Virus record (IMG/VR): IMGVR_UViG_3300044825_002278
Span: 39,910-103,909 of that record
Reading direction: 5' to 3' (one strand)
Source of the DNA: a virus
DNA: 64,000 nt
How positions within the stretch are numbered: position 1 is the stretch's first letter; each line of letters starts with the position of its first letter. The notes under the pieces were generated by a model. The model was not told the origin of the DNA and made no database searches. It saw nothing but the letters and a program-made list of their open reading frames with translations. This document shows positions 19,664 to 37,624 of the stretch, piece by piece. The position numbers were made by a program, and so were the translations under genes.

Positions 19664-19671
19664 GAATTTGA

Positions 19672-21231: not shown

Positions 21232-21241
21232 AAGGTAAAAT

Positions 21242-21574
21242 GTGAATAAATGTCATTTTTTAGGAAAGCTAACCTGCGATCCTAAAGTTAAAAAAGAAAA
21301 TAATGTTCCGGTAATAAATTTTGAATTAGAAATAGAAGAGTTTAGAAAAGACAACAATAAAGAAAAGGTAAGGTCTTTAACTTATTTGAATTTCGAGGCA
21401 TGGGATACGGCAGCAGAGGCAATTGAAAAGTATGCCAAAAAAGGAAGTTTGATGGCCATCGAATCTGTAGCGAGAAATTATTTTTATGAAGACCCGCATG
21501 ATCCAGAAGCAGATGAAATAACTGAAACTTATTTTAGGGTAACTAATTTTAAAATACTCGGAATAGGAATATGA
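21242..21574 (+). CDS. ssb: Single-stranded DNA-binding protein
   Basis: NKCHFLGKLTCDP, NFEAWDTAAE..KYAKKGSLMAIE. Confidence 0.82.
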   Translation: MNKCHFLGKLTCDPKVKKENNVPVINFELEIEEFRKDNNKEKVRSLTYLNFEAWDTAAEAIEKYAKKGSLMAIESVARNYFYEDPHDPEADEITETYFRVTNFKILGIGI

Positions 21575-23205
21575 GAAAAAAAAGAATACTTTGGGTAAAC
21601 GATGCCTCATGGAAAGGCACTGGTTATGCTGTTTATTCTAATGAAGTACTATCTAGACTTAATAAAGTTGAAGATTTTGAAGTGGCTGAAATAGCTTGTT
21701 ATGCAGACAAAAACGATCCGCATATCAAAGATGTTCCTTGGAAGGTTTACGCCAATAGACCATTAGAAACTGATCCAAATTTTGAAAACTATGTCAAAAA
21801 TCCAAGTTTAATTTTTGGCGAGAATGTTTTTAATGAAGTTCTTTTGGATTTTATGCCGGATATAGTTATGGATATACGCGATTGGTGGATGTTTGAATAC
21901 CAGCAGCGTTCGCCATTCAGGGAATTTTTTCACTGGTCAATAATGCCAGCGGTAGATGCATCGCCTCAAAATCCGCAATGGATTAATACTTATGCTTCAG
22001 CCGACAGTGTTTTTGGTTATTGTGAATTTAGTAAAGAAACCCTTGAAAATCAATCTGATAAAATAAATTTCATCGACATAGCGTCTCCTGCGGCCAATGC
22101 AAATGATTTTGTTCCAGTAAAAGATAAAGCGACCCACAAAGACAATATGGGATTAGACGCAAATTCAATTATTGTTGGAACTGTGATGCGAAATCAACGA
22201 CGAAAGCTTTACCCAGATTTATTTAAAGCTTTTAGAATGTTTCTGGATGAAACTAAAAACCCAAACGTATTTCTATTCTGCCATAAATATTATCCAGATA
22301 TTGGGTGGGAAACTCCAGCATTGCTTGATATGTTTGGGTTGAGTAATAGAGTTTTGTTTTCTTACAAATGCCAAGAATGTAAACATATTAGCGTTGACTT
22401 CTTTAAAGATTCAGTCACTCATTGCGAAAAATGCAAAAAGTTTTCAAAACGCTTGGTGGGTGTTGATAATACAATGAGCAATGAGGAACTAAGCAAAATA
22501 TACAATTTATTTGATGTTTATGTTCAATATGCCAATAGCGAAGGATTTGGTATGCCTCAGCTTGAGGCAGCTTATTGTGGCATTCCGGTTATGACCATTT
22601 ATTATTCAGCAATGAAATCTGTTGCAGACAACATAGGAGCTATTCCTATTTATCCAATAGAATATTCTATGGAATGTGAAACTGGATGCTACAGAGCGAT
22701 ACCAAACAATCAACAATTTGTAGAAAAATTGAAAGAAGTTTTAAGCACCGATTTTCGTTCTGCTGGTTTAAAAACAGCGGAGCTTGCCAGAAAGCATTAT
22801 AGTTGGGACAAAACTGCAAATGCTTGGATTGATCATTTTAGAACGATACCGCTGAAAGATCATTCTGAAACTTGGCGGTCGCCGCCTAAGATATTTGAGC
22901 CAGCAACTACTATACCAAGCGAAATAATAGACCTTAAAGATCAAATAAATTACATATTTAGATACGTTCTACACAAACCAGAATGGATTGGCGGTTACTT
23001 CTGGTCTAAAGTTTTAAAAGATATTACTTTTGGATACCGCGTAAGAAACTCAGAAGATGACTATTACTTTAATGAGTCGCATATGCCAGCAGTTGATAAA
23101 TACCAAAAGTTTAATTTTGTTATGGCAGTGAACGAACTAACAAATCTTAGAAATCAATGGAATCAATGGGAAAGGCTCAGAAGTGAACATGTTGCAAGAT
23201 TTTAG
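21571..23205 (+). CDS. GT4-family (GT-B) glycosyltransferase with an inserted CxxC...CxxC zinc ribbon
   Basis: TGY, VMRNQRRK, YANSEGFGMPQLEAAYCG; CQEC...CEKC. Confidence 0.88.
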   Translation: MRKKRILWVNDASWKGTGYAVYSNEVLSRLNKVEDFEVAEIACYADKNDPHIKDVPWKVYANRPLETDPNFENYVKNPSLIFGENVFNEVLLDFMPDIVMDIRDWWMFEYQQRSPFREFFHWSIMPAVDASPQNPQWINTYASADSVFGYCEFSKETLENQSDKINFIDIASPAANANDFVPVKDKATHKDNMGLDANSIIVGTVMRNQRRKLYPDLFKAFRMFLDETKNPNVFLFCHKYYPDIGWETPALLDMFGLSNRVLFSYKCQECKHISVDFFKDSVTHCEKCKKFSKRLVGVDNTMSNEELSKIYNLFDVYVQYANSEGFGMPQLEAAYCGIPVMTIYYSAMKSVADNIGAIPIYPIEYSMECETGCYRAIPNNQQFVEKLKEVLSTDFRSAGLKTAELARKHYSWDKTANAWIDHFRTIPLKDHSETWRSPPKIFEPATTIPSEIIDLKDQINYIFRYVLHKPEWIGGYFWSKVLKDITFGYRVRNSEDDYYFNESHMPAVDKYQKFNFVMAVNELTNLRNQWNQWERLRSEHVARF

Positions 23206-23785
23206 TTGGATTATCGATAAAATAAATACTGCAAAGATAGATATAGATAGCAGTGATGTTTTGGTAGACGCTGCATTTGCAAGAGATTCTTTATTCAAAG
23301 AAGTACTTGATTCTTTTGATGGACAATCGGTTAAAGTATTTCAAATAGGAGCAATAGAATCTTTAGAAGATAGATTTCGAGTTGGCTCTGGTTGGAGCGA
23401 TATGTTTTGGGGTCTTTATACTAAAAAATATGGCGGCGCAGTTGTTATCGCGGAAATGGATTTAAATCACATAGCAAATTCAAATTTTCTTGCACAACAA
23501 TTGGGCTATGAATGTAATTTCATTTTTGGAGATGCTAATAATTTTATTTCCAAAGGATATGACATTTATTATTTAGATGGAGCCGATATATCATATGCAG
23601 TAGACGCATACGAACAAACTCTAAGTCAATTCAAAAAAATAGAAAATGAAAATTGTGTTGTGCTTGTGGATGATTTACCAAGCAAAGGAAAGCTTTTATT
23701 GGACTACCTAAAAGAAAAGAATATACCATATACAACCCATAACTTTGGTTCTGGAATGGCTAAAATTGATATGAGGTCGAAATGA
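23183..23785 (+). CDS. Class I SAM-dependent methyltransferase-like protein
   Basis: VFQIG, YDIYYLDGAD, VLVDD, KGK. Confidence 0.6.
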   Translation: MNMLQDFSWIIDKINTAKIDIDSSDVLVDAAFARDSLFKEVLDSFDGQSVKVFQIGAIESLEDRFRVGSGWSDMFWGLYTKKYGGAVVIAEMDLNHIANSNFLAQQLGYECNFIFGDANNFISKGYDIYYLDGADISYAVDAYEQTLSQFKKIENENCVVLVDDLPSKGKLLLDYLKEKNIPYTTHNFGSGMAKIDMRSK

Positions 23786-24864
23786 AAATATTGTACATAG
23801 GTCATTATCGTGATGGAACTGGATGGGGAAATGCTGCGGTAAACAATATTTTAGCATTAGATTCTGTTGGCGTAGAAGTTGTTCCGAGAGCAATTACATA
23901 TGAAAGTCAAGATAGACCGTATCCAGATCGTATAAAAGAATTAGAAGACAATTCAGAAATTGGCTGTGATATTGTTATTCAACACACGCTACCAAATAAT
24001 TATTGGTATAATTCTAGCTACAAAAATATTGGATGCCTCACAGCAGAGTCGTCAAATTTTAAATCAACTGGATGGCAAAACTACTGTAATTTAATGGACG
24101 AGCTGTGGGTTTCTAGCAAAGTAACAAAAGAAATATGTAAAAGAAGCGGAGTTAAAAAACCAGTCAGTGTAGTTCCTTATTCTTTAGATTTGTCTAAATA
24201 TGAGAATCCATACGGCGAACAAGTAGAGGAATTAAAAAATAATTTTACCTTTGGTTTTGTCGGAGAATGCATCGAACGTAAAAACATCAAAGCTTTAGTA
24301 CAAGCTTTTCATATGGAATTTGACCCAAGAGAACCAGTAAATCTATTTGTAAAAACATCAAAAAAGGATTTAGCTGGAATACAGGGTTATTTTGGCCACA
24401 TCAGGAGAGGTTTGAAAAACAGAAAAAATTACTCTGAAGAAATAATCATAACAGGAATGATGCCAGAAACTGATTACATTTCTGTTTTATCACAAGTTGA
24501 TTGTTTTATTATGCCAAGCAGAGGAGAGGCAGGATGCATTCCGTCGTTAGAAGCTATGGCTTTGGGTATACCAGTTATTTGGACTGATGGTATCGGCATA
24601 GACCATGCCATTGGAATGTCGGTTAAATCCTACGACGTTCCTTGTTTTGGCGCAATAGAAACATTAAATGATTTAGATACAAGCGAAGCTACATGGAAAG
24701 AAATTGATGTTCTAGAGCTATCTAAAGCAATGAGAAAAATGTATGAAAATATGACTATAAAAAGCAATCGAGAAAATATGTCCGAACAATGCAAAAGTCA
24801 AGCAATGAAATACTCTCAGAAAGAAATAGGAAAAAAAATGCTGGAGGTTTTAAATGACCGCTAG
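23782..24864 (+). CDS. GT4-family glycosyltransferase
   Basis: GTGWG, ERKNIKAL, MPSRGEAGCIPSLEAMALG. Confidence 0.88.
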   Translation: MKILYIGHYRDGTGWGNAAVNNILALDSVGVEVVPRAITYESQDRPYPDRIKELEDNSEIGCDIVIQHTLPNNYWYNSSYKNIGCLTAESSNFKSTGWQNYCNLMDELWVSSKVTKEICKRSGVKKPVSVVPYSLDLSKYENPYGEQVEELKNNFTFGFVGECIERKNIKALVQAFHMEFDPREPVNLFVKTSKKDLAGIQGYFGHIRRGLKNRKNYSEEIIITGMMPETDYISVLSQVDCFIMPSRGEAGCIPSLEAMALGIPVIWTDGIGIDHAIGMSVKSYDVPCFGAIETLNDLDTSEATWKEIDVLELSKAMRKMYENMTIKSNRENMSEQCKSQAMKYSQKEIGKKMLEVLNDR

Positions 24865-25882
24865 AGCAAATTTAAGATCAGTACGCTCATTCATGAGCAA
24901 AAATAAACAAAAAGAAAAACTAAACATACTAACATTTCCAACGCATGAAAGGTATGAAGAAAACTTGTGCCGTACCGGGCATAATTTTTATGCATTTAAT
25001 TATGGTAAAACTTGGAATTCAATGTATGCTCCCATTCCAGACAATTATCATGTAATAAATAACCTTCCCAATTGGTTAGACATTGATCTTGTTCTAAGCC
25101 ATACCTCGTGCGAACGTCTGCAAGTAGCTCATGATTTACTTTCAGAAACTCTTGGCACTATAAATCAAATATCTGTGCCTATAATTAGGCATTGCCATAT
25201 ATTGCCAACCGTGGGAATACAGGATCAACAGGAAAATTATAAAAGTATCGATGTATTCAGAAATTCTTTCATATCTAACTATAACATGAACGCTTGGGGA
25301 TATAATGACAAAGAGGCATTTGTTATCAATCATGGTATAGATACTGATTTTTGGACACCAGACTCGTCTGTAAAACGAGATAATGTTTTACTATCAGTTG
25401 TAAACGGTTGGCCAGATCGCGATTGGTGCTGCGGATTTAATTTATGGAAAAATACAGTTAAACTTGGAGCCGAAAACCAACTGCCGGTTCGTGTTTTTGG
25501 CGATAGTCCCGGTTTTTCTGTTGCGGCAAAAGATAAATATCATCTACGTCAAATATATCAAAATTCTAGTGTATTTTACAATACATCGCTGCATTCGCCT
25601 GTGCCGACAGTTCTAATGGAGGCAATGGCCTGCGGCTGCGCTGTTGTTTCAACTAATAATTGTATGATACCAGAAATTATTGAGCATGGTTACAATGGCC
25701 TTTTATCAAACGACCCAGAAGAATTAACCTCTTACTGTGAGCTGTTATTAAAAAAACCAGAATTTGCAAGACGTTTAGGTAATAATGCTAGATTGACTAT
25801 ATTAGAAAAATACAATATGGAAAATTTCGTTAATAATTGGAACACATTACTTTACAATACAGTTGGAGATTTTAGATGTTAG
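24854..25882 (+). CDS. GT4-family glycosyltransferase
   Basis: INHGIDTDFW, PTVLMEAMACG, EIIEHGYNGLL. Confidence 0.88.
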   Translation: MTARANLRSVRSFMSKNKQKEKLNILTFPTHERYEENLCRTGHNFYAFNYGKTWNSMYAPIPDNYHVINNLPNWLDIDLVLSHTSCERLQVAHDLLSETLGTINQISVPIIRHCHILPTVGIQDQQENYKSIDVFRNSFISNYNMNAWGYNDKEAFVINHGIDTDFWTPDSSVKRDNVLLSVVNGWPDRDWCCGFNLWKNTVKLGAENQLPVRVFGDSPGFSVAAKDKYHLRQIYQNSSVFYNTSLHSPVPTVLMEAMACGCAVVSTNNCMIPEIIEHGYNGLLSNDPEELTSYCELLLKKPEFARRLGNNARLTILEKYNMENFVNNWNTLLYNTVGDFRC

Positions 25883-26310
25883 TATATCTTACAGGAAGAG
25901 ACTCAGTTCCAGAGGCGTGTTCAAAGCACACAATTTGCAGAGATGTATCGACATTGGCAAGAAATGTGCTTCAAAATGAAGCAACAGAAATTATTTGTCA
26001 AGACTTTTTATCCTGCTTCAATTGGGAAGATTTGCCAAAAGTTATCGAATTGATCTTAACAAAAATGAGAAAAGGTTGCAAATTAACAATATTAGAAAAA
26101 GATCTACGATTAATTTCAAGGCAAATTTATAAAGAAATATCTTCGGTAGAATCTTTAAACAAAAAAATATTTGAATCTGGGCAGATAATGAAGTCTTTGT
26201 TTTCTCTTGAAGATATAATAAGTCATATCAATGTAAGCGAATACAAAATAACTTCTAAAGGTTTTGTCGATGGGGCAAGTTTTAGCTTAACACTGGAGAG
26301 AATTAAATGA
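25876..26310 (+). CDS. Hypothetical protein (possible degenerate methyltransferase fold)
   Basis: ATEIICQDFL...KMRKGCKLTI resembles a methyltransferase C-terminal half. Confidence 0.5.
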   Translation: MLVYLTGRDSVPEACSKHTICRDVSTLARNVLQNEATEIICQDFLSCFNWEDLPKVIELILTKMRKGCKLTILEKDLRLISRQIYKEISSVESLNKKIFESGQIMKSLFSLEDIISHINVSEYKITSKGFVDGASFSLTLERIK

Positions 26311-27104
26311 AAATAGTAAGTCATTGCAAAAATTGCGTATTTGCAAAATACAACAATGATCACAAGCAAATATCTTGTTCTCTAAATAGGCATGATAAAC
26401 TTGGTGTAGAAAAGATAGTCGAAAATAATTTTGAGTTACAAAGATATTGTAATACGTTTCGACCAAAAGAATGGATGCAGCAATTATCATTTGAAGAATC
26501 ATTAAATCCAGAAGATACAGTTTTGCAAGAAGTGCATCCAAGAATTGGTTTTTTTGTTAAACTAAATACAGAAGAATCAAATGCAATTGACGCTCTTGAA
26601 CTAACCATAAATTCTATATCTAAATTAGATGGTAGAAAAGCCGCGTATGTTGTCGTTATAAATGATAAAGTAGAATACAACGAGGAAATATGGGGTCTTT
26701 TTATTAAGTATTTTGGAGAAGTATCAGAAACTACAAAGTACCACATAGTGCAATTAAATGAAAAGCCATCAAAAATGATTGAAATAATTGATGAAGCTTT
26801 TCCAAGAGCCGAAAATGGTTGGGTCATGTGTACATCAAGCGGTCTTAGAGTTAGGCCAGAGACATTAGAAAAGTTACACGATTTGATCAATAAACAAATG
26901 AAACAACTAACTATGATTGAGCCTCATGATAACTTTAATGGCTTAATGTTTCCTGCTTATTTATTCAAATTTTTGAATGGCAATAAAACAAAAACATTTC
27001 AAGATGAAGTTGTTGATAGCAACGAATTTATCCAAAAGGTTAGAAACGCGGAAGAGCGCGGCAAAACAAAAACGATTATGACATGGAAGGAATTTTACGC
27101 ATGA
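26307..27104 (+). CDS. Hypothetical protein with N-terminal Cys cluster (possible degenerate GT-A)
   Basis: HCKNCVF...CS...YCN; lies within the glycan cluster. Confidence 0.55.
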   Translation: MKIVSHCKNCVFAKYNNDHKQISCSLNRHDKLGVEKIVENNFELQRYCNTFRPKEWMQQLSFEESLNPEDTVLQEVHPRIGFFVKLNTEESNAIDALELTINSISKLDGRKAAYVVVINDKVEYNEEIWGLFIKYFGEVSETTKYHIVQLNEKPSKMIEIIDEAFPRAENGWVMCTSSGLRVRPETLEKLHDLINKQMKQLTMIEPHDNFNGLMFPAYLFKFLNGNKTKTFQDEVVDSNEFIQKVRNAEERGKTKTIMTWKEFYA

Positions 27105-27877
27105 ACTATGACCCAAGTAGAAAAACGCTGTGCGATATAAAAGAACTTCCTAAAGTCGCTATTGTTTGTGCTAATTATAACTATGGCAAATATATTATCG
27201 CTGCCATAGATAGCGTTATGAATCAAACATACAAAGGACCACTTCGTTTGTATATTGTAGACGATGGATCTACAGATAATTCTTGGGAATTGATATCTGA
27301 ATATCTAGCGAATTTTAAACAAGAAGGCAAAATATGGGCAATTAGAATAGAAAACTCTGGGGCTAGTGCTGCAAGAAATTTAGCTATTGTTGCACACGCT
27401 ATGGAGTGGGCTGATATTATAGGAATACTGGATGCTGATGACGCTTATATGCCGCAAAAAGTTGAAAAACTAGTGAATAAGCTTGTAGAACATGATGAAA
27501 TTGGGGTTGCTTATGCTGATTATCTAAATGTATTTCCAGATTATTCAAAACGCGAGTTTAAACCGTCATATGACAAAATTGGACTTATGAAAAGATGCAT
27601 GGTTCATAGCAACGCATTGATAAAATCAAAATATCTAAAACAGGTTCAGTTTGAGAATGGAGATATTTTTGATAGAAATCTTCATGGGCCAGCAAGCAAA
27701 GGATTTATTGGCTGCACAGAAGACTATGATTTATGGCTGCGACTTTCTAACGTATGTATTATTAGTCATGTTCCAGAATGTTTAGCAATCTCCAATCAAC
27801 ATGGCAATAACCAATCGATGAAAATGACGGCAGAAATTTTTAATGAAAATACAAAAATAATGATGGATAGAAAATGA
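27101..27877 (+). CDS. GT2-family glycosyltransferase
   Basis: NYNYGKYI, VDDGSTD, GASAARN, LDADD, EDYDLWLR. Confidence 0.92.
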   Translation: MNYDPSRKTLCDIKELPKVAIVCANYNYGKYIIAAIDSVMNQTYKGPLRLYIVDDGSTDNSWELISEYLANFKQEGKIWAIRIENSGASAARNLAIVAHAMEWADIIGILDADDAYMPQKVEKLVNKLVEHDEIGVAYADYLNVFPDYSKREFKPSYDKIGLMKRCMVHSNALIKSKYLKQVQFENGDIFDRNLHGPASKGFIGCTEDYDLWLRLSNVCIISHVPECLAISNQHGNNQSMKMTAEIFNENTKIMMDRK

Positions 27878-28584
27878 CTAGGTTTATAACCAATATTAGA
27901 AAAAAGACTGTTCAAAATGAACAATCAGATGGAATATCCGTGGCAATACTTTCGGCTGGGTGCGGAAGTAAAATAAAATCATACGAACCAAGAAGCCTTC
28001 TCAAAATCAAAAGCGAAGAATTTTTGATAGATTGTCAACTTGATATAATTGGTAATTTTTTTGTAAAGCCTGAAATTATTACAGTTGTTGGGTGTCATGC
28101 AAACAAAGTAATCAAGAAAATTAAAGGTAAATGTCGAATTGTTGAAAATCAAATATATGAGGATACAAACGCTTCTGAAAGTATGAGACTTGCTTTCAAC
28201 AACTCAACAATGTCAAGTTTTATGTTTATACATGGCGATATTTTATTTGATGCCAATTGTTTAAATGTAGAATACGCCAATTCATTTATAATAGTGGACT
28301 CGAAAAAAATGATCGGAGAAAATGAAATTGGAGTTACTATAGTTGATAACAAGGCATCTATAATGTCTTATGGCTTACCAACAAAATGGGCGCAGATAGC
28401 ATTCTTTACAGGAAGAGAACTAAAAATACTTGGTAGCATTTTTCAGAAATTTGAAGAAAAAGACAGAAAGAAGCTTTCATTTGAAATAATAAACGAAGTT
28501 ATAGCAAACGGTGGAATATTTCACTGTTATGAACCAAACAAAATGAAAATCAAAGAAATAGATACAATAAAGGATATCGAATGA
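27874..28584 (+). CDS. Nucleotidyltransferase (NTP_transferase, LicC-like)
   Basis: ILSAGCGSKIKSYEPRSLLKI, VVGC, VENQIYEDTN..ES, HGDILF. Confidence 0.8.
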   Translation: MTRFITNIRKKTVQNEQSDGISVAILSAGCGSKIKSYEPRSLLKIKSEEFLIDCQLDIIGNFFVKPEIITVVGCHANKVIKKIKGKCRIVENQIYEDTNASESMRLAFNNSTMSSFMFIHGDILFDANCLNVEYANSFIIVDSKKMIGENEIGVTIVDNKASIMSYGLPTKWAQIAFFTGRELKILGSIFQKFEEKDRKKLSFEIINEVIANGGIFHCYEPNKMKIKEIDTIKDIE

Positions 28585-29621
28585 AAGTATTGATAGCAAG
28601 TGATGGTCTACATGCTCACTATTACGAAAGAATGACATGGGCAAGTGCGTTTTTAGCTTGTGGAATAAATGTCGCAATATGGGACATAAAGCAACATTCA
28701 GCGTTTGATGTTTTTGACACATTTGAGCCAGATTTGTTTCTTGGTCAATCTTACAATTTAGATGAAGCAACAATAAAATGTATTTATGAAAGACCGCATT
28801 TGAAAGTTGGACTTCGTGCTGGAGATTGGGGAGATCAAACAAAAGAAATTGATTTGCGTAAGTTCAATATTTTGACATGCAGTCCAAAAGAAAGAGAAGT
28901 CTTAAAAAGACTCAAAGACGAAACTGGCCAACCTGAATTTGTATATATTCATTACACGCCGCAGGCTATAGCTCAAACACACAATCACTTTGAAACAATA
29001 GGCATCAAACCAATTTCGGTTATGATGTCTGCCGATACCACAGCTTATAGCGGAGCTAAATTCGATCCATCTCTTGAGTGCGACATAGGATTTGTTGGCG
29101 GGTTTTGGCCGTATAAAGGGCAAATAATAAAACCGTATTTATTCCCTTTATTTGAGCCGTTTGGAAAATATCATATAAAAATCTTTGGCAATCAGCCTTG
29201 GCCAGCAAATCAGTACTGCGGCCTGATAAATGACGAACAAGTAAAAGATCTATTTGTTTCTGCTAAAATATGCCCCAATTTAAGCGAGCCACATGCCCAT
29301 GAATTTGGGTTTGATGTTAATGAAAGAATATTCAAGATTTTGTATGCTGGAGGATTTTGTATTAGCGATAATGTAGAAGGATACAAAACTACATTCGGAG
29401 ACTCGGTTGTTTACGCTGAGTCGCCGCAGGATTTTAAAAATAAGATCGATTACTATCTAAACAATGAACAAGAGCGGCAACAAATTTCCAAACGTGGCCA
29501 CAACTTTGTAAAAGAAAATCATACCGGTTTTCATAGGATATCGCAAATATTAAAAGAATTTGGTCACGAAGACTTAGCAAATAAACTATTGATTCAATAC
29601 CGAGAATACATCAATGCATAG
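28581..29621 (+). CDS. Glycosyltransferase (CgeB/Glyco_trans_1_2-like)
   Basis: DIGFVGG, SAKICPN, NERIFKI..AGGFCISD, YYLNNEQERQQI, NHT..HR. Confidence 0.82.
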   Translation: MKVLIASDGLHAHYYERMTWASAFLACGINVAIWDIKQHSAFDVFDTFEPDLFLGQSYNLDEATIKCIYERPHLKVGLRAGDWGDQTKEIDLRKFNILTCSPKEREVLKRLKDETGQPEFVYIHYTPQAIAQTHNHFETIGIKPISVMMSADTTAYSGAKFDPSLECDIGFVGGFWPYKGQIIKPYLFPLFEPFGKYHIKIFGNQPWPANQYCGLINDEQVKDLFVSAKICPNLSEPHAHEFGFDVNERIFKILYAGGFCISDNVEGYKTTFGDSVVYAESPQDFKNKIDYYLNNEQERQQISKRGHNFVKENHTGFHRISQILKEFGHEDLANKLLIQYREYINA

Positions 29622-30576
29622 AAAGATTTTAGTTACTGGAGCCAACGGTTTTCTTGGCAAAGCCGTTATGGATAAAATAGATAGCAAGTATATAAAGATT
29701 GGACTCAAAGGAAAATCTCACTGCGATTTAACCAATCAAAAATACGTTGATTATACTCTACAAGAGTATGAACCAGACTACGTTATACATTTAGCAGCGG
29801 CGTGCGGAGGAATTGGAATCAATCAAAAACTTCCGGGCCAATTTTTGTATGACAACTTGGCAATGGGCATGAACTTAATTGAAAGCTGTCGCAAATATGG
29901 CAGACTAAAAAAGTTTGTAATGGTTGGAACGGTTTGTTCATATCCAAAGTATACTCCAGTTCCATTTAAGGAAGACGATTTATGGAATGGATATCCAGAA
30001 GAAACCAATGCTCCGTACGGTATAGCAAAAAAGACATTGATAGAAATGTTGATTGCATACAACAAGCAATACGGTTTTAATTCTACAAATTTGATACCAG
30101 TGAATATGTATGGACCAAACGATAACTTTAATCCTGCCAGCAGTCATGTTATACCGGCACTTATACTCAAAATAGATCGTGCAATTCAAAACAATGATCC
30201 AAGTGTAGTTTTATGGGGAAGCGGATATGCGAGTCGAGAATTTTTGTATGTTGAAGACTGCGCCGAGGCAATAGTTTCTTGTTTGGATATTGATACTGGC
30301 CCGTATCCTATCAACATAGGCACATGCAGTGAAATTACAATTAGAGATTTAGCTGAAAAAATTGCAAAAACAATGGGATATAATGGAACTATATTGTATA
30401 ACACAGACTACCCAGACGGTCAACCCAGAAGGTGTTTAGATGTAACAAAAGCCGCAGATACATTAAACTTTAAAGCAAAAACAAAATTTGATGATGGACT
30501 TAAGCAAACCATTGAATGGTATTACAAAAATAAAGATATGGAGAAGTTCGTTGATTACTTTAATTATATTCAGTAA
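29614..30576 (+). CDS. fcl: GDP-L-fucose synthase (GDP-4-keto-6-deoxymannose epimerase/reductase)
   Basis: TGANGFLG, HLAAACGGIG, GTVCSYPK, YGIAKK, PVNMYGPNDNF, SHVIPALI, REFLYVED, DGQPRRCLD. Confidence 0.93.
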   Translation: MHRKILVTGANGFLGKAVMDKIDSKYIKIGLKGKSHCDLTNQKYVDYTLQEYEPDYVIHLAAACGGIGINQKLPGQFLYDNLAMGMNLIESCRKYGRLKKFVMVGTVCSYPKYTPVPFKEDDLWNGYPEETNAPYGIAKKTLIEMLIAYNKQYGFNSTNLIPVNMYGPNDNFNPASSHVIPALILKIDRAIQNNDPSVVLWGSGYASREFLYVEDCAEAIVSCLDIDTGPYPINIGTCSEITIRDLAEKIAKTMGYNGTILYNTDYPDGQPRRCLDVTKAADTLNFKAKTKFDDGLKQTIEWYYKNKDMEKFVDYFNYIQ

Positions 30577-31435
30577 AAATAGACCGCTACAATTAGATCT
30601 ATGCTTGTCGAGCATAGCTCAAAATTTCAATGCAAATTATACGCCTATAGTTTTATATAGCTGCGATGAAGAGTATGAAAATGCATACAAAACTCTGAAA
30701 CAAGAACATGAAGATGTAATGTTTTGGAAACAAGGAAAGTCTTTATTTGAAGACGTTTTTGTTGCTGTAAATTCATACGATAATTCATACTGTTGTTTTT
30801 TAACCGATGATTGTGTTATGTATCAACAATCTCCGAATCTAAGCGATCAAAATTTAAACAACATATTTGCTATGGAAAATATTTGTTGTTTTTCTTTAAG
30901 ACTTGGATCAAACATAATCAAGCGTGGTTTTAAAGATGAATTAGAATTTAAATGGTTTAATGATAGACTTCAATACGCCGATGGTTTAAATGTATGGAAA
31001 AATAGCCTCGGCTTTATATGTTGGGATAGAAGTCAGCATTTCTATGGCGGCTATTGGAATTATCCCATTTCTGTGGATGGGCATATTTTTAGAACACAAG
31101 ATTTATCTTCTTGGATGGAAGAGCTTGTTTATCTTGAGGCTATAAAAAAATGGAATCAAACACCCAATGAAATTGAACGTGCTTTGCAAAGATTTGCAAA
31201 CGAAGCGCCTTGTTTAGTTGGATGTTTTGAATCGAGTTGCATTGTCAATAGCCCAAACAATAGAGTTCAAAATACTATCAAAAATTACGATGGTGTATTT
31301 CATCCGGCCACGCCAGAGTTATTGCTTAAATACTTTGAGCAGGGAAAAAGAATAAAACTTGAAAAATTAGAAATTCAAGAAATCGAATGCCCTCATACCG
31401 AAATCGATATACTCAAAGGATTACAAAATGATTAG
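30551..31435 (+). CDS. Glycosyltransferase-like protein (GT-A fold)
   Basis: IIFSKNRPLQL, FLTDD, YPISVDGHIF, PNEIE; TTG start after GGAG. Confidence 0.7.
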   Translation: MITLIIFSKNRPLQLDLCLSSIAQNFNANYTPIVLYSCDEEYENAYKTLKQEHEDVMFWKQGKSLFEDVFVAVNSYDNSYCCFLTDDCVMYQQSPNLSDQNLNNIFAMENICCFSLRLGSNIIKRGFKDELEFKWFNDRLQYADGLNVWKNSLGFICWDRSQHFYGGYWNYPISVDGHIFRTQDLSSWMEELVYLEAIKKWNQTPNEIERALQRFANEAPCLVGCFESSCIVNSPNNRVQNTIKNYDGVFHPATPELLLKYFEQGKRIKLEKLEIQEIECPHTEIDILKGLQND

Positions 31436-32186
31436 TGTTGTAACTGGCACTTTAAATAGATATGACTATCTATACGATCTTTTAAAAAACACTGTTTGGG
31501 CCGACGATAGAATCGAGCTAGTTTTAGTCGATGGCGGAAGCACCGATGGAACAATAGAGCTGGTCAGATCAATAGCGTCTATAGAGCCAAGAATTAAATT
31601 CATAGAAGTAGGACAAAGAAGTTCTTACCCGCATTATATGAATCTAGGAATTAAAAATGCGTCACATGAATTAGTCTGTCAATGGAACGATGATGTTATT
31701 TTGTGCAATAAATGGCAAGAAGTAATCAACGAAATAGATGACCACGATGTTTACATTTTTAATTGGAAAACCGGAACAAAGCACGATACATACGATGAAA
31801 ACTGGCTAAAATGCGACGGAATACGCGATAACGGATGGATTGTTATCAACAATGCTCAGTATAAGTATCCTCAATCTATAGGCGAGCAATACAATGAAAT
31901 CTGCGTAAACTATGGAATCTACAAAAAGGATGTATTTAGAAAATTTGGTTTGTACAATCCTAAATACAAATATTATTGCGCTGATGGAGAAATGGCTATG
32001 CGTGCAAAATATTATGGCGCAAAGTTTAAAACTTGCTTCAACATCAAAGTTTGTGTGCTTCCGGCAGAAAAAAGAGCCATTATGATTAATGAAGACGTAC
32101 AAAGATACAATTTAGATTGCTTTCATTTTAATTACAATACACCAAGTTATTTTGAGGGTGAATTTTTGGAGAAACGCTATGAGTAA
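31428..32186 (+). CDS. GT2-family glycosyltransferase
   Basis: ISVVTGTLNR, VDGGSTDGT, MNLGI, WNDD, YCADGE. Confidence 0.88.
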   Translation: MISVVTGTLNRYDYLYDLLKNTVWADDRIELVLVDGGSTDGTIELVRSIASIEPRIKFIEVGQRSSYPHYMNLGIKNASHELVCQWNDDVILCNKWQEVINEIDDHDVYIFNWKTGTKHDTYDENWLKCDGIRDNGWIVINNAQYKYPQSIGEQYNEICVNYGIYKKDVFRKFGLYNPKYKYYCADGEMAMRAKYYGAKFKTCFNIKVCVLPAEKRAIMINEDVQRYNLDCFHFNYNTPSYFEGEFLEKRYE

Positions 32187-32739
32187 AACCGCGTTACTTT
32201 TGTTTGCGCGAATAGAATCCAATGGCAACATAAGCCCAGAAATAAATGAAACTATTGAAAGTTTCAAGCAATTAAATACAACTCTAGATATTCATCTTGT
32301 AGCTTTTGGAGTAGCGTCTAAAAATATAGTAGTTAATGATGATGTTAATTTTTCTTTTTATGAAAATTTGGATATTAACTTTTTTCAAAGTGTTATTTGT
32401 TCAAAACTAGAATTATTTCTTGCCGCTGGACACAATAAAACAATAATAAGCAGTTGTTCGTATCAAATAAATAACAAAAATTTTCTTGACAAAAATTTAG
32501 TAATTGTGACTTATGATGGAAACGAGTTTAACGAAAATAAAAACATCAATCATAGATTCATCTATGGGAGAACCGCATTATTAAAAAGAATATGGGAAAA
32601 CAAACCGTTTGATGCAGCAAAAGATCTTGATAAAAATTTGTTTTTAAATGTATTTAATGTAATAGGCTTAAAAAACATGAACGAAAATAAAGTTCCGATG
32701 AATGGATTTATTAAACGAATTGGCTGGCACGCTCAATGA
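32179..32739 (+). CDS. Hypothetical protein
   Basis: GGAG RBS; operonic ORF in the glycan cluster. Confidence 0.6.
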   Translation: MSKTALLLFARIESNGNISPEINETIESFKQLNTTLDIHLVAFGVASKNIVVNDDVNFSFYENLDINFFQSVICSKLELFLAAGHNKTIISSCSYQINNKNFLDKNLVIVTYDGNEFNENKNINHRFIYGRTALLKRIWENKPFDAAKDLDKNLFLNVFNVIGLKNMNENKVPMNGFIKRIGWHAQ

Positions 32740-33470
32740 AATTAATATCTTTTAGCCTTTATGGCAACGATCCAAAATATACTCATGGATTAATAGAGAA
32801 TCTAAAAATCAAAGAACAAGAAGGATTATATGGTGGCTGGAATGTAATCGTATATCATGACGATTCAGTTCCAAGCGGAGTTTTGGATGTATTGCAGCAT
32901 TATAAAGTAATTTTAAGAAATGTAGACGGTTGTGGGATACTTCCAGCAAGCTGGAGATTTTTAGCATACGATGAGCCAGAAGTAGAAAGGTTTATTTGTC
33001 GCGATGCTGATTCTAGAATTAATAAACGTGAAGAATTGGCCGTAAAACAATGGGAAAATGGGAATAAGATTTTACATATAATGCGAGATCATCCGCATCA
33101 TGGTTCCCAAATACTTGGTGGAATGTGGGGCATAAGAAAATATTATCAAGATGGAACGCGGGTATTTAATACATCTTTCAAAGATCTGATACTTTTACAT
33201 CAGGGCGGCAAGAATTACACAATGGCAAAAAGTGAATGGTTTTGGAGTGATATGAATTTTTTAAGAGATACTGTTTATAACGCTTTAGCAAAACCAGAAA
33301 CTTCATTGATACATGCTGCGCAAGATTACATGCATAGAGTCCCTTGGAAGAACGAAGATTGGGCAATCGATTTCCCTACGCCAATTGGTCCAGAAAAATA
33401 CTTTATTGGAGAAATATTCTTTTTTCAAAACGGAATACAAAAACGAGACTATCAATATACGGAAAGATAA
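32736..33470 (+). CDS. Putative glycosyltransferase-like protein (ISFSLYG...RDADSR family)
   Basis: ISFSLYGNDPKY, WRFL, CRDADSR, HIMRDHPHH, LGGMWG. Confidence 0.65.
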   Translation: MKLISFSLYGNDPKYTHGLIENLKIKEQEGLYGGWNVIVYHDDSVPSGVLDVLQHYKVILRNVDGCGILPASWRFLAYDEPEVERFICRDADSRINKREELAVKQWENGNKILHIMRDHPHHGSQILGGMWGIRKYYQDGTRVFNTSFKDLILLHQGGKNYTMAKSEWFWSDMNFLRDTVYNALAKPETSLIHAAQDYMHRVPWKNEDWAIDFPTPIGPEKYFIGEIFFFQNGIQKRDYQYTER

Positions 33471-33928
33471 TGATCAATATATCGGTATTAATAAATGATT
33501 TATCGGCATCGCAAAATGCTTTTTACATGATAAAAGAATTCAATAAATGTATAGAAAACACAGACATATCGGCTAGTGTTTTTTGTAATAGACATTCTGT
33601 TCCGGTTACTCAGCCATTGTTTGCTTGTCGTCTTGCAAATTTTCTAGTTTCTTATAATGGAATAGTTATAGCAACAACTCTCGAAGAAGCAGAAACTATA
33701 TTGAAGCTACCAAACAAATCCAAAAGATATCTTTATTTATGGGATTTAGATTGGCTAGAAAACCCTGTATTTTTTTCTGCCGCAATGAATATCTTGAGAA
33801 ACGATAAACTTGAAATTTTAGCCCGTAGTGAGTCTCATGCTAAAGTAATAGAACATTTCTGCAATAAAAAAGTTAAAGGCATAATTGACAATTGGAATAT
33901 AAATCAGGTATTAGAATTATGTACATGA
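33470..33928 (+). CDS. Hypothetical protein (GT-B N-terminal-like)
   Basis: TAATG-coupled; VIATT, YLYLWD. Confidence 0.6.
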   Translation: MINISVLINDLSASQNAFYMIKEFNKCIENTDISASVFCNRHSVPVTQPLFACRLANFLVSYNGIVIATTLEEAETILKLPNKSKRYLYLWDLDWLENPVFFSAAMNILRNDKLEILARSESHAKVIEHFCNKKVKGIIDNWNINQVLELCT

Positions 33929-34533
33929 TTCATCATCATCTTGGGCTTGGCGACCATATTATTTGCAACGGCTTAGTCCGTTTCTTAAGTAAAGAAAAAG
34001 GCATTACATTGGCTGTAAAACATAACAATTTAGCAAATGTAGCTAGAATGTTCAAAGATTTAAGTATCGAATATTACTTGATCGATAAAGATGAGCATAC
34101 TGGAAATTTAGGTTGGTGTTTTGGTGGAGATAAAACCATTAACTTTGATGAAGCTTTTTACAAACAAGCTGGAGTTGATTTTCAAGAACGCTGGAACTCT
34201 TTTTACATTGACAGAGACTACGATAAAGAAAAGACTTTAATAGAATATCTGAATCTTCCAGAAAGATTTTGTTTGATTCACGATACAGCCAGCGCCGGAA
34301 AAGTTAATATTGTTGTAAATACGGATCTTCCAATTGTACGAGTTCGTAAAACAGAAATAGAAAAGTCTATGTTTGATTGGATGGGCATTATTGAGTTGGC
34401 ATCAGAAATTCATTGTATAAATTCTTCATTCATTCATTTGGTTGATTCAATGCGTCCAAATGCTAAATTATATTTTCATGACGATAGGTCACACTTACAG
34501 TTTTCAAAAAAATTAAATTGGAACTTAGTATAA
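33919..34533 (+). CDS. GT-B-like glycosyltransferase (GT9/fucosyltransferase-like)
   Basis: HHLGLGDHIICNG, FDEAFY, ASEIHCINSSF. Confidence 0.65.
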   Translation: MYMIHHHLGLGDHIICNGLVRFLSKEKGITLAVKHNNLANVARMFKDLSIEYYLIDKDEHTGNLGWCFGGDKTINFDEAFYKQAGVDFQERWNSFYIDRDYDKEKTLIEYLNLPERFCLIHDTASAGKVNIVVNTDLPIVRVRKTEIEKSMFDWMGIIELASEIHCINSSFIHLVDSMRPNAKLYFHDDRSHLQFSKKLNWNLV

Positions 34534-35141
34534 TGTCTGGTCAAATTCAAAATAACAGCAATTTCGGTAAGGTTCTAAAAACAATCGCTCAAAGAGCAGA
34601 TGTTAAAAATATAGTTGAAATAGGCACTTGGAATGGTCTTGGTTCGACTTTATGTATATTAGAATCAATACAAAACAAAGAAACAACTTTCATAAGCATC
34701 GAACTTATCAAAGAAATGTATAATCACGCCAAAAATAATTTAAGACAATATTCTAAAGTTATTCTTTTAAATGGAGCTATTATAACAGCAGAAGATTTGA
34801 ATTGGTTTAATGTAGAAGAAGCTAAATGTAATTTTACTTCAATCGAACGCGAGCATTTTGACCTGCATTACATGAAAGAAGTAGAGGCAATAAAAACAGC
34901 AAATAATGTATTGGATCAAATTCCAGAAACAATCGATTTTCTCATCTTGGATGGTGGCGAATATAGCACATATCCAGAGTGGCAAAAACTCAAATCAAGA
35001 ACAAAAATTGTTGCCATTGATGATACAACAGTGCTGAAGTCTAAAAAAATTAGAAGTGAGTTGCTATCAGACAATGAATGGCAGCTTGTTACAGAAGATC
35101 AATCAGATCGAAATGGATATTCAGTTTTTGAAAGAAAATAA
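34533..35141 (+). CDS. SAM-dependent methyltransferase
   Basis: IVEIGTWNGLGST, FISIE, LILDGGE, IDDT. Confidence 0.78.
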   Translation: MSGQIQNNSNFGKVLKTIAQRADVKNIVEIGTWNGLGSTLCILESIQNKETTFISIELIKEMYNHAKNNLRQYSKVILLNGAIITAEDLNWFNVEEAKCNFTSIEREHFDLHYMKEVEAIKTANNVLDQIPETIDFLILDGGEYSTYPEWQKLKSRTKIVAIDDTTVLKSKKIRSELLSDNEWQLVTEDQSDRNGYSVFERK

Positions 35142-35143
35142 CT

Positions 35144-35749
35144 ATGAGTCAATTTCCTGTATTTGTTGGAAAAAATAGTTTGCAAGTAATAGATCAAAAA
35201 AGTGGATTATTGTTTCCTTGGTATGTTCCAGATTCTTTAGAATTTTTCAAAGATAGGGACATATCGCAATGGGAAGTATTTGAATGGGGCGGAGGATCGT
35301 CAACTATTTGGTATGCATATAACGCTAAACATGTTGACGTATTAGAAGCAAATAAAGATTGGGCAGAAAAAATAAGCACTTACATACTGAACATTATGAA
35401 TCAAAATAATTACTCGGTGAAATATATAGATGTTAAATCAGAAGAAGCCGAAAATGGATCTCAAAATAAACCAACGCCAAATATGCAAGAATATCTTTCA
35501 TACATCAAGACACTCGGCAAAACTTACGACTGCATCATTATCGATGGATCGTACCGGGACGAAGCTATAGTTCCGTCTTTGGAATGCATAAAAGATGGGG
35601 GGTATATAATATTCGATAATTACGAACAAGACACATCTGGATATCTTATATTAAAAAATAAAAATTTGCTAAATAAGCATCCCAATAAGCTATACCAGTA
35701 TGGCGAGTGGAAAACAAAAATATGGAGAATAGAAAATGAATATAGATGA
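35144..35749 (+). CDS. SAM-dependent methyltransferase
   Basis: FEWGGGSSTIWY, YDCIIIDG..R, GGYIIFDN. Confidence 0.8.
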   Translation: MSQFPVFVGKNSLQVIDQKSGLLFPWYVPDSLEFFKDRDISQWEVFEWGGGSSTIWYAYNAKHVDVLEANKDWAEKISTYILNIMNQNNYSVKYIDVKSEEAENGSQNKPTPNMQEYLSYIKTLGKTYDCIIIDGSYRDEAIVPSLECIKDGGYIIFDNYEQDTSGYLILKNKNLLNKHPNKLYQYGEWKTKIWRIENEYR

Positions 35750-36506
35750 AAAATACGCAATAGAAAAATACAAAGAAGGTTTTAGTTGTCAAGAAATAGC
35801 CGAACAATTAAATACATACGCTAAAAAAGTAGAACGGGCATTGAAAAAAAATGGCGTTGAGATCAGAAGCAAATCTAAAGCAATGCAATTAGCAATTAAA
35901 AATGGGCGATCTGAACATCCGACAAAAGGCAAAAAACGAAACGAGGATTCAAAACTTGCGATTAGCAAAGGTGTCGAACAGGCATGGAAAGATATGACAC
36001 CAGAAACAAAAGAAGAACTTTCCAGCAGCGCAAAAGATAGATGGAAAAATATGGACCCTGTTAAAAAACGCGAAATGCAAGAAAAGGCTGGCCGCGCTTT
36101 AAGAGAGGCTTGTCTTAGCGGCTCGAAAGCTGAAAAATTTCTTAAGTCAAAACTACAAGAAATGGGTTATGAAGTCGTAATGCATAAAAAGGGTTTGATA
36201 GAGGGAAATTTTGAAATAGATTTGCTTTTGCCGGAACTCAACACGATAATAGAAGTAGACGGTCCACAACACTTTCTTCCGGTATTTGGAGAAGATAAGT
36301 TGTCAGAAATTGTAAAGATGGACACCATTAAAAATGGTTTATTGATTGGTAAAGGGTTTTGTGTTATTAGAATCAAATATCTTTGCAAGAACATGAACCT
36401 AAGCGTCGAAAGAAAATTGTGGGATGCTGTATCAAAAGAAATAGAGAAGATTGAAATTAGTTTTCCGCCTAAAACAAAACGATTTATTGAATTGGAGATT
36501 AAGTAA
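35736..36506 (+). CDS. HTH/NUMOD3-like plus DUF559/Vsr-like endonuclease (probable homing endonuclease)
   Basis: SCQEIAEQL, HPTKGKKRNEDSKLAIS, SKAEK, EIDLLLP..IIEVDGPQH, D..KN. Confidence 0.78.
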   Translation: MNIDEKYAIEKYKEGFSCQEIAEQLNTYAKKVERALKKNGVEIRSKSKAMQLAIKNGRSEHPTKGKKRNEDSKLAISKGVEQAWKDMTPETKEELSSSAKDRWKNMDPVKKREMQEKAGRALREACLSGSKAEKFLKSKLQEMGYEVVMHKKGLIEGNFEIDLLLPELNTIIEVDGPQHFLPVFGEDKLSEIVKMDTIKNGLLIGKGFCVIRIKYLCKNMNLSVERKLWDAVSKEIEKIEISFPPKTKRFIELEIK

Positions 36507-37261
36507 TGTCACAGGATTTGTTTGATGTTGAAAGCATCAAAGAGGATATGAACAACGAAGAAATGCAACAACGCGATTTAATGCCAGCTTATGGTTCTGA
36601 AAAATGGCATGATTACGTCATGAGTAAGTTTTATCCAAATGAACTTTATGATGGCAATCCTGTGTGCGCTGGTTTGCGTAGAGTTGCTGAAGAATTGCTT
36701 GGTACTATCATTGTTAGCAGACCATCGCATGTTTGGCCAGCAATGGACACAGATGGTCCCGGACGAGCAACTGTAGTATTTGAAGTAGTTATCGATTGGA
36801 TGGATTCTGGTCAACTAAGAACATTCTCTGACGTTGCAGACGTATGGCATGGAAACACCGACGATTTATTTTGCGCACATCCGGTTGCAACAGCATCCAC
36901 GCGCGCAGAAGGTCGAGCCTTGAGAAAGGCATTAAAAGTAAAATGTTTGGCAGCAGAAGAACTAGCCAAAAAGGATATTGTTTCTATTGTAAGGCAGTCG
37001 GTCCAAAACCAAGGGTCTACCGATGGAACATGGAAGGAGGATGAAAGTATTAGTACTCCGCAAGTTAACTTTATTGATGCTAAGTGTAAACAACTTAATA
37101 TCAATGTAATGAAGTTTATCAATATAGGAGAATCTAAATACGAATCAATCGACAAAGTTAGTAAAAAGACAGCATCAAAAATGCTAGGAGTCTTAAACGA
37201 GTACCAGACTGGTGTAAAGCCAATTCCGGCTGAAATCACTGGATATACCAATTGGAGGTAA
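36506..37261 (+). CDS. Rad52/Sak-like single-strand annealing protein
   Basis: AGLRRVA, RATVVFEV, ATASTRAEGRALRKAL; C-terminal STPQVNFI...ASKML module. Confidence 0.6.
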   Translation: MSQDLFDVESIKEDMNNEEMQQRDLMPAYGSEKWHDYVMSKFYPNELYDGNPVCAGLRRVAEELLGTIIVSRPSHVWPAMDTDGPGRATVVFEVVIDWMDSGQLRTFSDVADVWHGNTDDLFCAHPVATASTRAEGRALRKALKVKCLAAEELAKKDIVSIVRQSVQNQGSTDGTWKEDESISTPQVNFIDAKCKQLNINVMKFINIGESKYESIDKVSKKTASKMLGVLNEYQTGVKPIPAEITGYTNWR

Positions 37262-37264
37262 TGA

Positions 37265-37594
37265 ATGAAAGTAACTTATCAACTAGGCAAACTAACAGCT
37301 TCTTTTGAGTGCGATACTCAAAAAGATTTGTTTACTCAACTGTCTTCTTTTCAAGAAGTGTTTGGACAGTCTAAGTGCGGAAAGTGCGGAGCAGAAGATT
37401 TAGTTTTTATCGTTAGAGAAAACGGTGGGAATGAATATCATGAAATGAGATGCACTTCTTGCAATGCTAGATTGTCGTTCGGAGTAAACAAAAAGGGCGG
37501 AGGTTTGTTTCCGAAGCGCAAAGACGCTGAAGGAAACTGGTTGCCAGATGGCGGCTGGGTAAAGTGGAATCAGAAAACGCAAGCAGTAGAGTAA
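37265..37594 (+). CDS. Zinc-ribbon hypothetical protein
   Basis: GGAGG RBS; CGKC...CTSC. Confidence 0.75.
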   Translation: MKVTYQLGKLTASFECDTQKDLFTQLSSFQEVFGQSKCGKCGAEDLVFIVRENGGNEYHEMRCTSCNARLSFGVNKKGGGLFPKRKDAEGNWLPDGGWVKWNQKTQAVE

Positions 37595-37624
37595 CATAAC
37601 GCACGCTGCTTATTTTTGCAAAAC

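Follow-up and report, generated by a model that had tools for sequence, protein, structure and literature searches.

In the Bacillus spore crust (cgeB and sps genes), CgeB- and SpsA-like transferases decorate a proteinaceous particle in the cytoplasm with no export. Virion O-glycosylation in the mycobacteriophages was reportedly described by Freeman et al. in 2023. The mycobacteriophages are the precedent of phage-encoded virion glycosylation as cited in passages of PMC12619734, and the glycosyltransferase (GT) B736L belongs to the chloroviruses, which glycosylate their capsids themselves (PMC9614988). The "cell-wall synthesis and modification" gene sets of cyanophages are read as host-surface modification (PMC12801897), and phage GTs adding mono- to trisaccharides to 5-hydroxymethylcytosine (5hmC) are also known (bioRxiv 10.1101/2023.12.21.572611). 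Here, we analysed a stretch of 64,000 bp (the window) spanning bases 39910–103909 of the 103,909-bp IMG/VR contig IMGVR_UViG_3300044825_002278 (named as G000), which comes from an uncultured freshwater phage with a genome of about 150 kb. The window contains an 18-gene glycan island directly behind the replication genes, whose products are soluble, and a tentative role of this island in the glycosylation of a phage protein is proposed.

The island at 21571–35749 of the window is filled with 18 co-directional open reading frames (ORFs) on the + strand and makes up about 10% of the genome. When the likeliest starts were taken (27101, 30551, 32179, 33470, 33925, and 34533), all the junctions were found to overlap by 1–26 nt or to leave a gap of ≤2 nt, and the first ATG overlaps the stop codon of ssb. 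The run of tightly coupled genes directly after ssb, as claimed in an earlier reading made from the sequence alone (the sequence-only reading), was thus borne out, and so were most of its enzyme assignments. The three GT4, two GT2, and one CgeB-like GT that it listed were recovered with Pfam (PF00534 three times, PF00535 twice, and PF13524 once), and two of its further GT-like proteins gained support. The 265-aa protein gave an AlphaFold2 (AF2) model of GT-A fold with a predicted local distance difference test (pLDDT) score of 93, which matched TarS, TarP, heparosan synthase, and SpsA in Foldseek (E 7e-6, template modelling score 0.41–0.48), and it carries an N-terminal four-Cys hairpin domain in which C7, C10, C24, and C48 are invariant. 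The GT-A-like protein starting at 30551 has an invariant DD within "FFTDDDI" in the alignment and a weak match to TIGR04440.

The enzymes predicted to supply activated sugars were also confirmed as members of the families named earlier. The profile of the nucleotidyltransferase found LicC (1JYK) as the best PDB match (E 1e-11), followed by GlmU (1e-7) and IspD (1e-5), and its consensus "AILSAGxGSRIKS" with the "LSAGxGSR" motif corresponds to the G-x-G-x-R nucleotide-binding signature. It is predicted to activate a sugar-1-phosphate or a phospho-alcohol. A LicD, Glyphos_transf, or Tag-type phosphotransferase partner was searched for and none was found, so a teichoic acid-like phospho-alditol reading has no supporting transferase; the search for a ManC-type NTP_transferase also found none. 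For the GDP-L-fucose synthase (Fcl), the 18 best PDB matches were all GDP-L-fucose synthases (E 4e-64 to 3e-36), with the next families at E 1e-24. When aligned to 7LL6, it showed GTVCSYP for GSSCIYP (Thr for Ser, with Cys retained), YGIAK for YAIAK, and a retained SSHV. We take these residues to act as in E. coli GMER, as a Ser/Thr-Tyr-Lys triad with Cys and His as the acid and base of the 3,5-epimerisation. The protein scored 289 bits on NF047922, under the equivalog cut-off of 500, and as a divergent member, it is named Fcl-like. The claim of three to four methyltransferases proved too strong. Only the gene at 34533–35141 is consistently, though weakly, supported as a probable O-methyltransferase by its matches to Methyltransf_24 (E 2e-4, below the gathering score) and to the O-methyltransferase 3NTV (E 0.003) and the gene at 35144 is marginal, whereas those at 23189 and 25876 gave no significant match. 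Separately, the possibility that the methyltransferase-like proteins are paralogues was dropped, as hhalign comparison of the three of them and the 144-aa protein was not significant.

The first island gene encodes a 544-aa GT4, named as GT544, and is the candidate for the initiating, acceptor-specific transferase of the island. It scored 36.5 bits on PF00534 against a gathering score of 26.4 and also matched phrog_2170. The EX7E motif (E324 and E332) is invariant in 23 orthologues, and the four cysteines of a CxxC...CxxC insert (C267, C270, C285, and C288), which is zinc-ribbon-like, are invariant as well. The AF2 model of GT544 (pLDDT 87) has a helical C-terminal extension of ~120 aa and matched GT4 structures of GT-B fold with two Rossmann domains (TMt up to 0.77). 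The chlorovirus GT4 B736L (3OY2, E 3e-20) was the best PDB structural match, ahead by five orders of magnitude, with an identity of only 16%; GT544 also resembles sucrose-phosphate synthase, MshA, GlgM, and the methylmannose-polysaccharide mannosyltransferase 7QSG. The protein is acidic, with a net charge of −9. The search for homologues returned 2337 sequences, and the best 120 were at least 55% identical, all metagenomic, and present on contigs of up to 155 kb. Among cultured phages, a homologue was found only in Synechococcus phage S-CBS4 (24%).

The conservation of the island was examined in 66 related viral loci that were collected with the polymerase, and orthologues of each gene were counted only in the loci that reach far enough downstream. 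A GT544 orthologue was present in 45 of 45 loci, and the order polymerase-(ssb)-GT544 persisted down to 32% identity of the polymerase. The region 21571–31435, comprising 10–11 genes, keeps its synteny in almost all the related contigs of sufficient reach and was taken as the core; the Fcl-like and GT-A-like genes at its end were found in all five long relatives examined. The exception is one locus (L062) with a minimal island of GT544, nucleotidyltransferase, a GT-A-like gene, the 152-aa gene, and two unassigned genes. The regions 31428–33470 and 33925–35749 are restricted to the closest relatives. In four relatives (G002–G005), the variable part is replaced by 6–11 kb of other glycan genes, which include FkbM methyltransferases, a formyltransferase, GT47, GT25, GT32, and RXYLT1-like genes, GT10 fucosyltransferases, a DegT aminotransferase, Polysacc_synt_2, and PIG-L. 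Judged from these gene contents, the fixed core with an exchanged distal cassette is the layout of a serotype-type locus, and the swapping of the cassette implies an exposed glycan under diversifying selection. By the same comparison, the island is a lineage-wide feature and not a recent acquisition. Replacement was also seen on a smaller scale in Logan contigs, where window positions 30874–31022 (in the GT-A-like gene) and 32174–32534 and 32613–32707 (in the 186-aa gene) carry diverged sequence of equal length. These patches were found in three independent runs with flanks that are 95–99% alike, 32174–32534 being replaced in run X10, and they are mosaic hot-spots in 30551–31435 and 32179–32739 that may mark specificity loops.

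The supply of fucose was followed into the relatives of the phage. The sequence-only reading had found no GDP-mannose dehydratase (Gmd), and gmd was indeed not found on G000, a contig classed as linear with a CheckV completeness of 67%. However, full-length Gmd was present in both complete relatives, G001 (148,313 bp with terminal repeats, colinear with G000) and G003, at 371–377 bits (G001: 377). As G000 lacks the counterpart of G001:860–42,400, in which gmd lies, the missing gene is an artefact of contig truncation. Gmd in the complete relatives and Fcl in the island together give the lineage its own route from GDP-mannose to GDP-fucose; judged from the gene content, either the host or the LicC-like enzyme has to provide the GDP-mannose. 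In G001, gmd is part of the late operon, in which a sigma-70-like gene, a 265-aa gene, Gmd, ERCC4, a ClpP-like protease, the head genes, the major head protein, and giant proteins follow in this order. The first three lie at G001:23195–25690 (L079:3195–5690, − strand), the sigma-70 region-2 protein being of 181 aa, and it may be a phage late sigma factor governing the virion genes and the fucose supply together. The giant proteins of 2461 and 2022 aa encoded after the major head gene contain 23–24% Ser and Thr, with 14.7% Thr. They map at G001:748–14212 (L078, − strand); taken in the order 2022 and 2461 aa, the first has its C-terminal end at 63160–63999 of the window. Thr, Ser, Gly, and Ala are abundant in both, with beta-type repeats; repeated units such as VTQPVSGTVTANLAAGTNNIGDVDVLT occur in the first of this order, and a tail-fibre-like stretch in the second. 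Other structural proteins have 14–24% Ser and Thr against 10.8% elsewhere, so the Ser/Thr-rich structural proteins noticed earlier are real, but this richness is not specific.

Because the acceptor depends on where the glycan is made, the genomes were searched for export machinery. None of the 18 island proteins has a hydrophobic segment in a hydropathy scan, and ORFs with at least three such segments were absent from G000 and from the complete G001, except for the tape measure protein. The initiating phosphoglycosyl transferase (Bac_transf) and the Wzx flippase (Polysacc_synt) were not found in five genomes (G000–G004), two of them complete, whereas the controls were detected. The polytopic membrane partners that characterise Wzx/Wzy- or ABC-dependent polysaccharide loci are thus missing from the genomes scanned. 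These results strengthened the earlier argument that the lack of export genes favours a cytoplasmic acceptor.

From the gene content, folds, motifs, synteny, and layout, together with the missing export and base-modification genes, we infer an acceptor, an order of steps, and a sugar composition as follows. Host GDP-mannose would be converted to GDP-L-fucose by the Gmd of the late operon and the Fcl-like enzyme of the island, and the LicC-like nucleotidyltransferase would activate a second building block. GT544 would act first and choose the acceptor, and at least eight soluble GT-B and GT-A transferases and at least one O-methyltransferase would assemble the glycan directly on a phage protein in the cytoplasm with no lipid carrier. 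The core genes would build the inner glycan and the exchanged distal set its variable outer part, like in serotype loci, and the product would be a branched, fucose-containing, and probably methylated heteroglycan. The most likely target would be a component exposed on the virion, for example the giant fibre-like proteins, rich in Ser and Thr, that are encoded beside the major head gene. The soluble enzymes, the Gmd in the late operon, the Ser/Thr-rich fibres, the CgeB- and SpsA-like families, and the match of GT544 to B736L led us to this reading, and virus-encoded GTs and sugar-nucleotide enzymes are conserved along with the virion genes, the core in nearly all relatives and Gmd within the late virion operon of G001. 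We therefore put forward tentatively, with a chance that we judge to be a little under even, that a phage protein, probably one on the virion, is glycosylated in the cytoplasm independently of a lipid carrier. The virion glycosylation suggested by the sequence-only reading stays the best reading, with a support that is indirect.

Several points weigh against it. Soluble GT4 and GT2 enzymes normally serve lipid-linked pathways too, for which the host could supply initiation and export, and a high Ser and Thr content is common in phage fibres. No island enzyme belongs to a protein-acceptor-specific family, and the glycan itself is deduced from genes. The island shares its transcription with the replication genes rather than with the virion genes, and this adjacency is held to the same low polymerase identity as given above. 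For B736L, no acceptor is known, and 3OY2 is also a top HHpred match of the DNA glycosyltransferases of T4 and RB69 (PMC6024577).

The remodelling of the host envelope is the strongest of the other explanations, and we consider it unlikely, though with an appreciable chance. Here, the soluble phage GTs would extend a lipid-linked intermediate that a host initiating transferase had begun at the inner face of the membrane, and the altered polysaccharide would leave the cell through the flippase, polymerase, and ligase of the host, which might serve to prevent superinfection or to change the properties of the cell surface while infection proceeds. In surface-polysaccharide loci, the GT4 and GT2 products are as a rule soluble or peripheral proteins, and the exchange of the variable cassette resembles that of O-antigen loci. 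The GT sets of cyanomyoviruses (13 GTs in S-SCSM2R) have been read in this way without tests (PMC12801897). Further genes upstream on the contig, which encode PAP2 phosphatase, UDP-glucose/GDP-mannose dehydrogenase, one more GT4, and a prepilin-like protein with DUF1559, would also fit, but the PAP2 product has no hydrophobic segment in the hydropathy scan. Against this explanation stand the missing initiating transferase, flippase, polymerase, and polytopic membrane proteins, with two complete relatives among the genomes searched, and the commitment of about a tenth of the genome to an island that is universal in the lineage of a phage that looks strictly lytic, with no integrase among the genes scanned.

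A different cytoplasmic product, such as a methylated oligosaccharide, free or with some other anchor, or a glycosylated protein outside the virion that acts as a decoy or a regulator of a host process, was judged improbable. All the island enzymes are soluble, and the GT4s for small or soluble acceptors that GT544 resembles (sucrose-phosphate synthase, MshA, GlgM, and 7QSG) would agree with it. However, a swappable outer cassette is hard to reconcile with an internal metabolite, and such a product has no known phage precedent.

The modification of DNA had been the second target named in the sequence-only reading, and it was disfavoured by the searches, leaving it a slim chance. GT544 and the later GTs would put a sugar chain on a modified base as a protection against host nucleases. 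The island begins on the ssb stop behind the polymerase and keeps this place in distant relatives, and a deoxynucleoside monophosphate (dNMP) kinase is encoded in the same operon. Protective hypermodification would relieve the avoidance of palindromes that is driven by restriction, and hypermodified phages such as T4 are not known to show such avoidance. In G000, the 6-bp palindromes were strongly avoided, with a mean z of −3.0 against 0.05 ± 1.3 for other words. Seven of them (TTCGAA, TCCGGA, GCTAGC, GCATGC, CTGCAG, CAGCTG, and GGCGCC) were at zero in 104 kb when each was expected 10–19 times (0 observed versus 18.8 expected for TTCGAA, 14.3 for TCCGGA, and 12.8 for CTGCAG). The avoidance followed the same pattern in G001 and extended to palindromic 4-mers, which suggests a heavy type II restriction pressure on exposed DNA. 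The ThyA-type hydroxymethylase (PF00303) and the C5-methyltransferase (PF00145) were not found in G000–G003, and ThyA-family, C5-methyltransferase, and DpdA/TGT enzymes were not found in up to five genomes (G000–G004), two of them complete; the controls were detected in these searches and the phage encodes ThyX. The search for a TET/JBP-type enzyme (PF12851) gave no match, but its positive control was silent too. GT-B enzymes related to 3OY2 do glycosylate the DNA of T4 and RB69 (PMC6024577), but at least eight GTs with Fcl and a methyltransferase go far beyond any known DNA glycan of one to three sugars, and GT544 is acidic. The place of GT544 directly behind polymerase and ssb, even in relatives with 32% polymerase identity, makes it conceivable that phage DNA, or a protein of the replisome or nucleoid, receives its first sugar from the zinc-ribbon GT4 through a chemistry independent of any hydroxymethyl base and that the rest of the island extends it to a complex methylated and fucosylated chain, which we regard as a still fainter prospect. 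The misassembly of a host DNA block into the phage contig, a caveat of the sequence-only reading, is refuted by the uniform GC content and skew across the island junctions, the synteny in dozens of independent viral contigs, the Logan contigs from four other studies that bridge polymerase-ssb-GT544 (19500–24390) and 23750–37839, and the near-identical DNA in 17 non-source runs of ~9 studies from freshwater, lake, and aquaculture metagenomes, so that only a negligible chance is left to it.

Table. Genes of the glycan island and its borders, with positions in the window.
Feature	Position	Strand	Support and occurrence
ssb, last replication gene	21242–21574	+	phrog_44, E 8e-14
GT544, 544-aa GT4 (GT-B), universal first island gene	21571–23205	+	PF00534, phrog_2170
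198-aa accessory protein	23189–23785	+	Methyltransferase resemblance by eye only; 5/44 loci
GT4, 360 aa, core	23782–24864	+	PF00534, E 2.9e-14; 40/41 loci
GT4, 342 aa, core	24854–25882	+	PF00534, E 3.8e-18; 37/38 loci
144-aa conserved core protein	25876–26310	+	31/36 loci
265-aa GT-A-fold protein, core	26307–27104	+	AF2 model and Foldseek; 32/32 loci
GT2, core	27101–27877 (alternative start 27083)	+	PF00535, E 4e-23; 31/32 loci
LicC/GlmU/IspD-like nucleotidyltransferase, core, universal	27874–28584	+	LicC 1JYK, E 1e-11; 32/32 loci
CgeB-like GT-B (Glyco_trans_1_2), core	28581–29621	+	PF13524, E 8.5e-23; 31/32 loci
Fcl/GMER-like short-chain dehydrogenase/reductase, core	29614–30576	+	GDP-L-fucose synthase PDB matches
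GT-A-like protein, ~294 aa, last core gene	30551–31435	+	DD motif; 5/5 long relatives
GT2, variable part	31428–32186	+	PF00535, E 2e-13; among long relatives only G001 and G002
186-aa protein, variable part, strain-variable	32179–32739	+	G001 only, 60% identical
244-aa protein, variable part	32736–33470	+	G001 and G002 only
152-aa protein, virus-only family, present in minimal island too	33470–33928	+	Orthologues in G001–G005 and L062
202-aa protein, variable part	33925–34533	+	G001 (79%), weakly G002
Probable S-adenosylmethionine-dependent O-methyltransferase (weak), variable part	34533–35141	+	Methyltransf_24, 3NTV
201-aa protein, marginal methyltransferase-like match, variable part	35144–35749	+	Methyltransf_24, E 0.014; G001 only
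Three conserved non-glycan genes (256, 251, and 109 aa), distal island border	35736–37594	+	Orthologues in G001–G005

The remaining island genes gave few family matches. The 198-aa protein had no significant Pfam, PHROG, or PDB match, the 244-aa and 202-aa proteins had no family match, and PDB profile searches found nothing significant for the 265-aa, 144-aa, GT-A-like, 152-aa, 251-aa, 198-aa, and 201-aa proteins. Pfam searches at E up to 1 with five unassigned island genes and with those that make up the minimal island of L062 returned noise only. The 152-aa protein fell into viral clusters of the atlas (0.97–0.98), and its named lead Gtf3_N scored 0.88 only. At the distal border, the 256-aa protein (35736–36506) carries an "EIDGPQHF" motif and weakly matched NUMOD3 and DUF559, the latter of Vsr-like endonuclease fold; being in synteny in all long relatives, it does not behave as a mobile homing endonuclease. 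The 109-aa protein (37265–37594) was 98% identical to its G001 orthologue against 66–89% for the neighbouring genes and is unusually constrained.

Upstream of the island, the replication operon on the + strand encodes a DnaB-like helicase, primase, dNMP kinase, HNH endonuclease, exonuclease, DnaE-like polymerase, and ssb, and on the − strand downstream lie the virion genes, among them that of the 3,204-aa tape measure. The DnaE-like polymerase (16731–21231) is split into 16731–18305 and 19672–21231, with an exonuclease-subunit-like gene at 18977–19663 and a 146-aa ORF at 18524–18964 between the pieces. The polymerase is less than 30% identical to that of any cultured or GenBank phage, and megablast of the island against GenBank phages gave no match. 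The promoter and terminator scans gave no signal above shuffled expectation, so the timing of expression is not readable from these elements, and no RNA run was present among the listed public runs that hold the island stretch. The early region upstream of the window (G000:13420–31082) encodes an HODM-like protein, UvdE, the UDP-glucose/GDP-mannose dehydrogenase, an IMPDH/GMP-reductase-like protein, a Methyltransf_11 enzyme, a DUF1559 and N-methyl prepilin-like protein, PAP2, and one further GT4. The prepilin-like protein is a hallmark of Planctomycetota and the Planctomycetes-Verrucomicrobia-Chlamydiae group, and some of these early genes may feed the glycan pathway or point to the host. The identification of a host from genome bins was rejected, as the 16 bins carrying GT544 span 13 unrelated taxa and the phage polymerase lies directly upstream of GT544 in all of them, which indicates mis-binned phage contigs. 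Phage contigs of this lineage of up to 158 kb (L090–L105, GTDB bins) were found in metagenome-assembled genomes labelled Flavobacteriales, SAR202, Verrucomicrobiales, Promethearchaeota, Thermoplasmatales, and others, which are likely contaminated public assemblies.

If the glycan is placed on the virion, a widespread aquatic phage lineage, whose GT544 homologues number thousands in metagenomes of marine and fresh waters, covers its particles in a complex glycan of its own making from genes arranged like a serotype locus. Phage virion glycosylation, which has been measured only in a few mycobacteriophages with few genes, would then reach a scale otherwise known only in giant viruses, and the question would be whether adsorption, particle stability, grazing, or host defences select glycan diversity on phage particles. 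Candidates for a new chemistry of acceptor recognition are GT544 and two virus-only proteins, of 152 aa and 144 aa. If the host envelope were the target, a lytic phage would be spending about a tenth of its genome on remodelling the host surface; if it were DNA, a new DNA modification would be expected; and if GT544 started a glycan on DNA or the replisome, it would represent a new class of nucleic-acid or replisome glycosylation.

Among the systems described, virion O-glycosylation in mycobacteriophages is alike in that soluble GTs of the phage presumably modify its own structural proteins within the cytoplasm and with no lipid carrier, and unlike in that, as given in passages of PMC12619734 and PMC12801897, few GT genes are involved and the glycans have been measured on the C-termini of capsid and tail-tube proteins. 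The island, known from genes alone, has 18 genes with its own GDP-fucose route, a core with an exchangeable cassette, and a position in the replication operon. The giant viruses (chlorovirus Vp54 N-glycans and the fibril clusters of Megavirinae) share Gmd/Fcl-type enzymes, many GT-A and GT-B transferases, methyltransferases, and sets that vary between clades (PMC9614988), and the chlorovirus GT4 B736L/A546L is the best structural match of GT544. Their hosts are eukaryotic and their virions unrelated, and GT544 adds the Cys4 insert and the C-terminal extension at the low identity noted above. The T4-like cyanophages S-SCSM2R, S-SCSM1, and P-SSM2 are aquatic like this phage and encode GT2, GT4, GT10, GT11, GT25, and sugar epimerases with an untested target; unlike it, they are myoviruses of more than 200 kb with scattered or loosely grouped glycan genes and some export-related products (PgaA) (PMC12801897). 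The 5hmC hypermodification clusters of Pyle et al. contain GTs related to lipopolysaccharide and teichoic-acid enzymes near replication genes, but what defines them is a C5-methyltransferase with a TET-type dioxygenase (or a hydroxymethylase), and their glycans have one to three sugars (bioRxiv 10.1101/2023.12.21.572611), whereas neither a C5-methyltransferase nor a ThyA-type hydroxymethylase was found with the island in the genomes searched and its GT count is far higher. The Bacillus spore crust is a cellular system, and the island shares with it only a resemblance of family and fold (PF13524, and SpsA among the Foldseek matches). The island is set apart from all of these by its combination of features, in which neither an export nor a base-modification partner accompanies about 10% of the genome devoted to glycan genes, a GT4 with a Cys4 insert directly behind ssb, and a conserved core followed by an exchangeable cassette.

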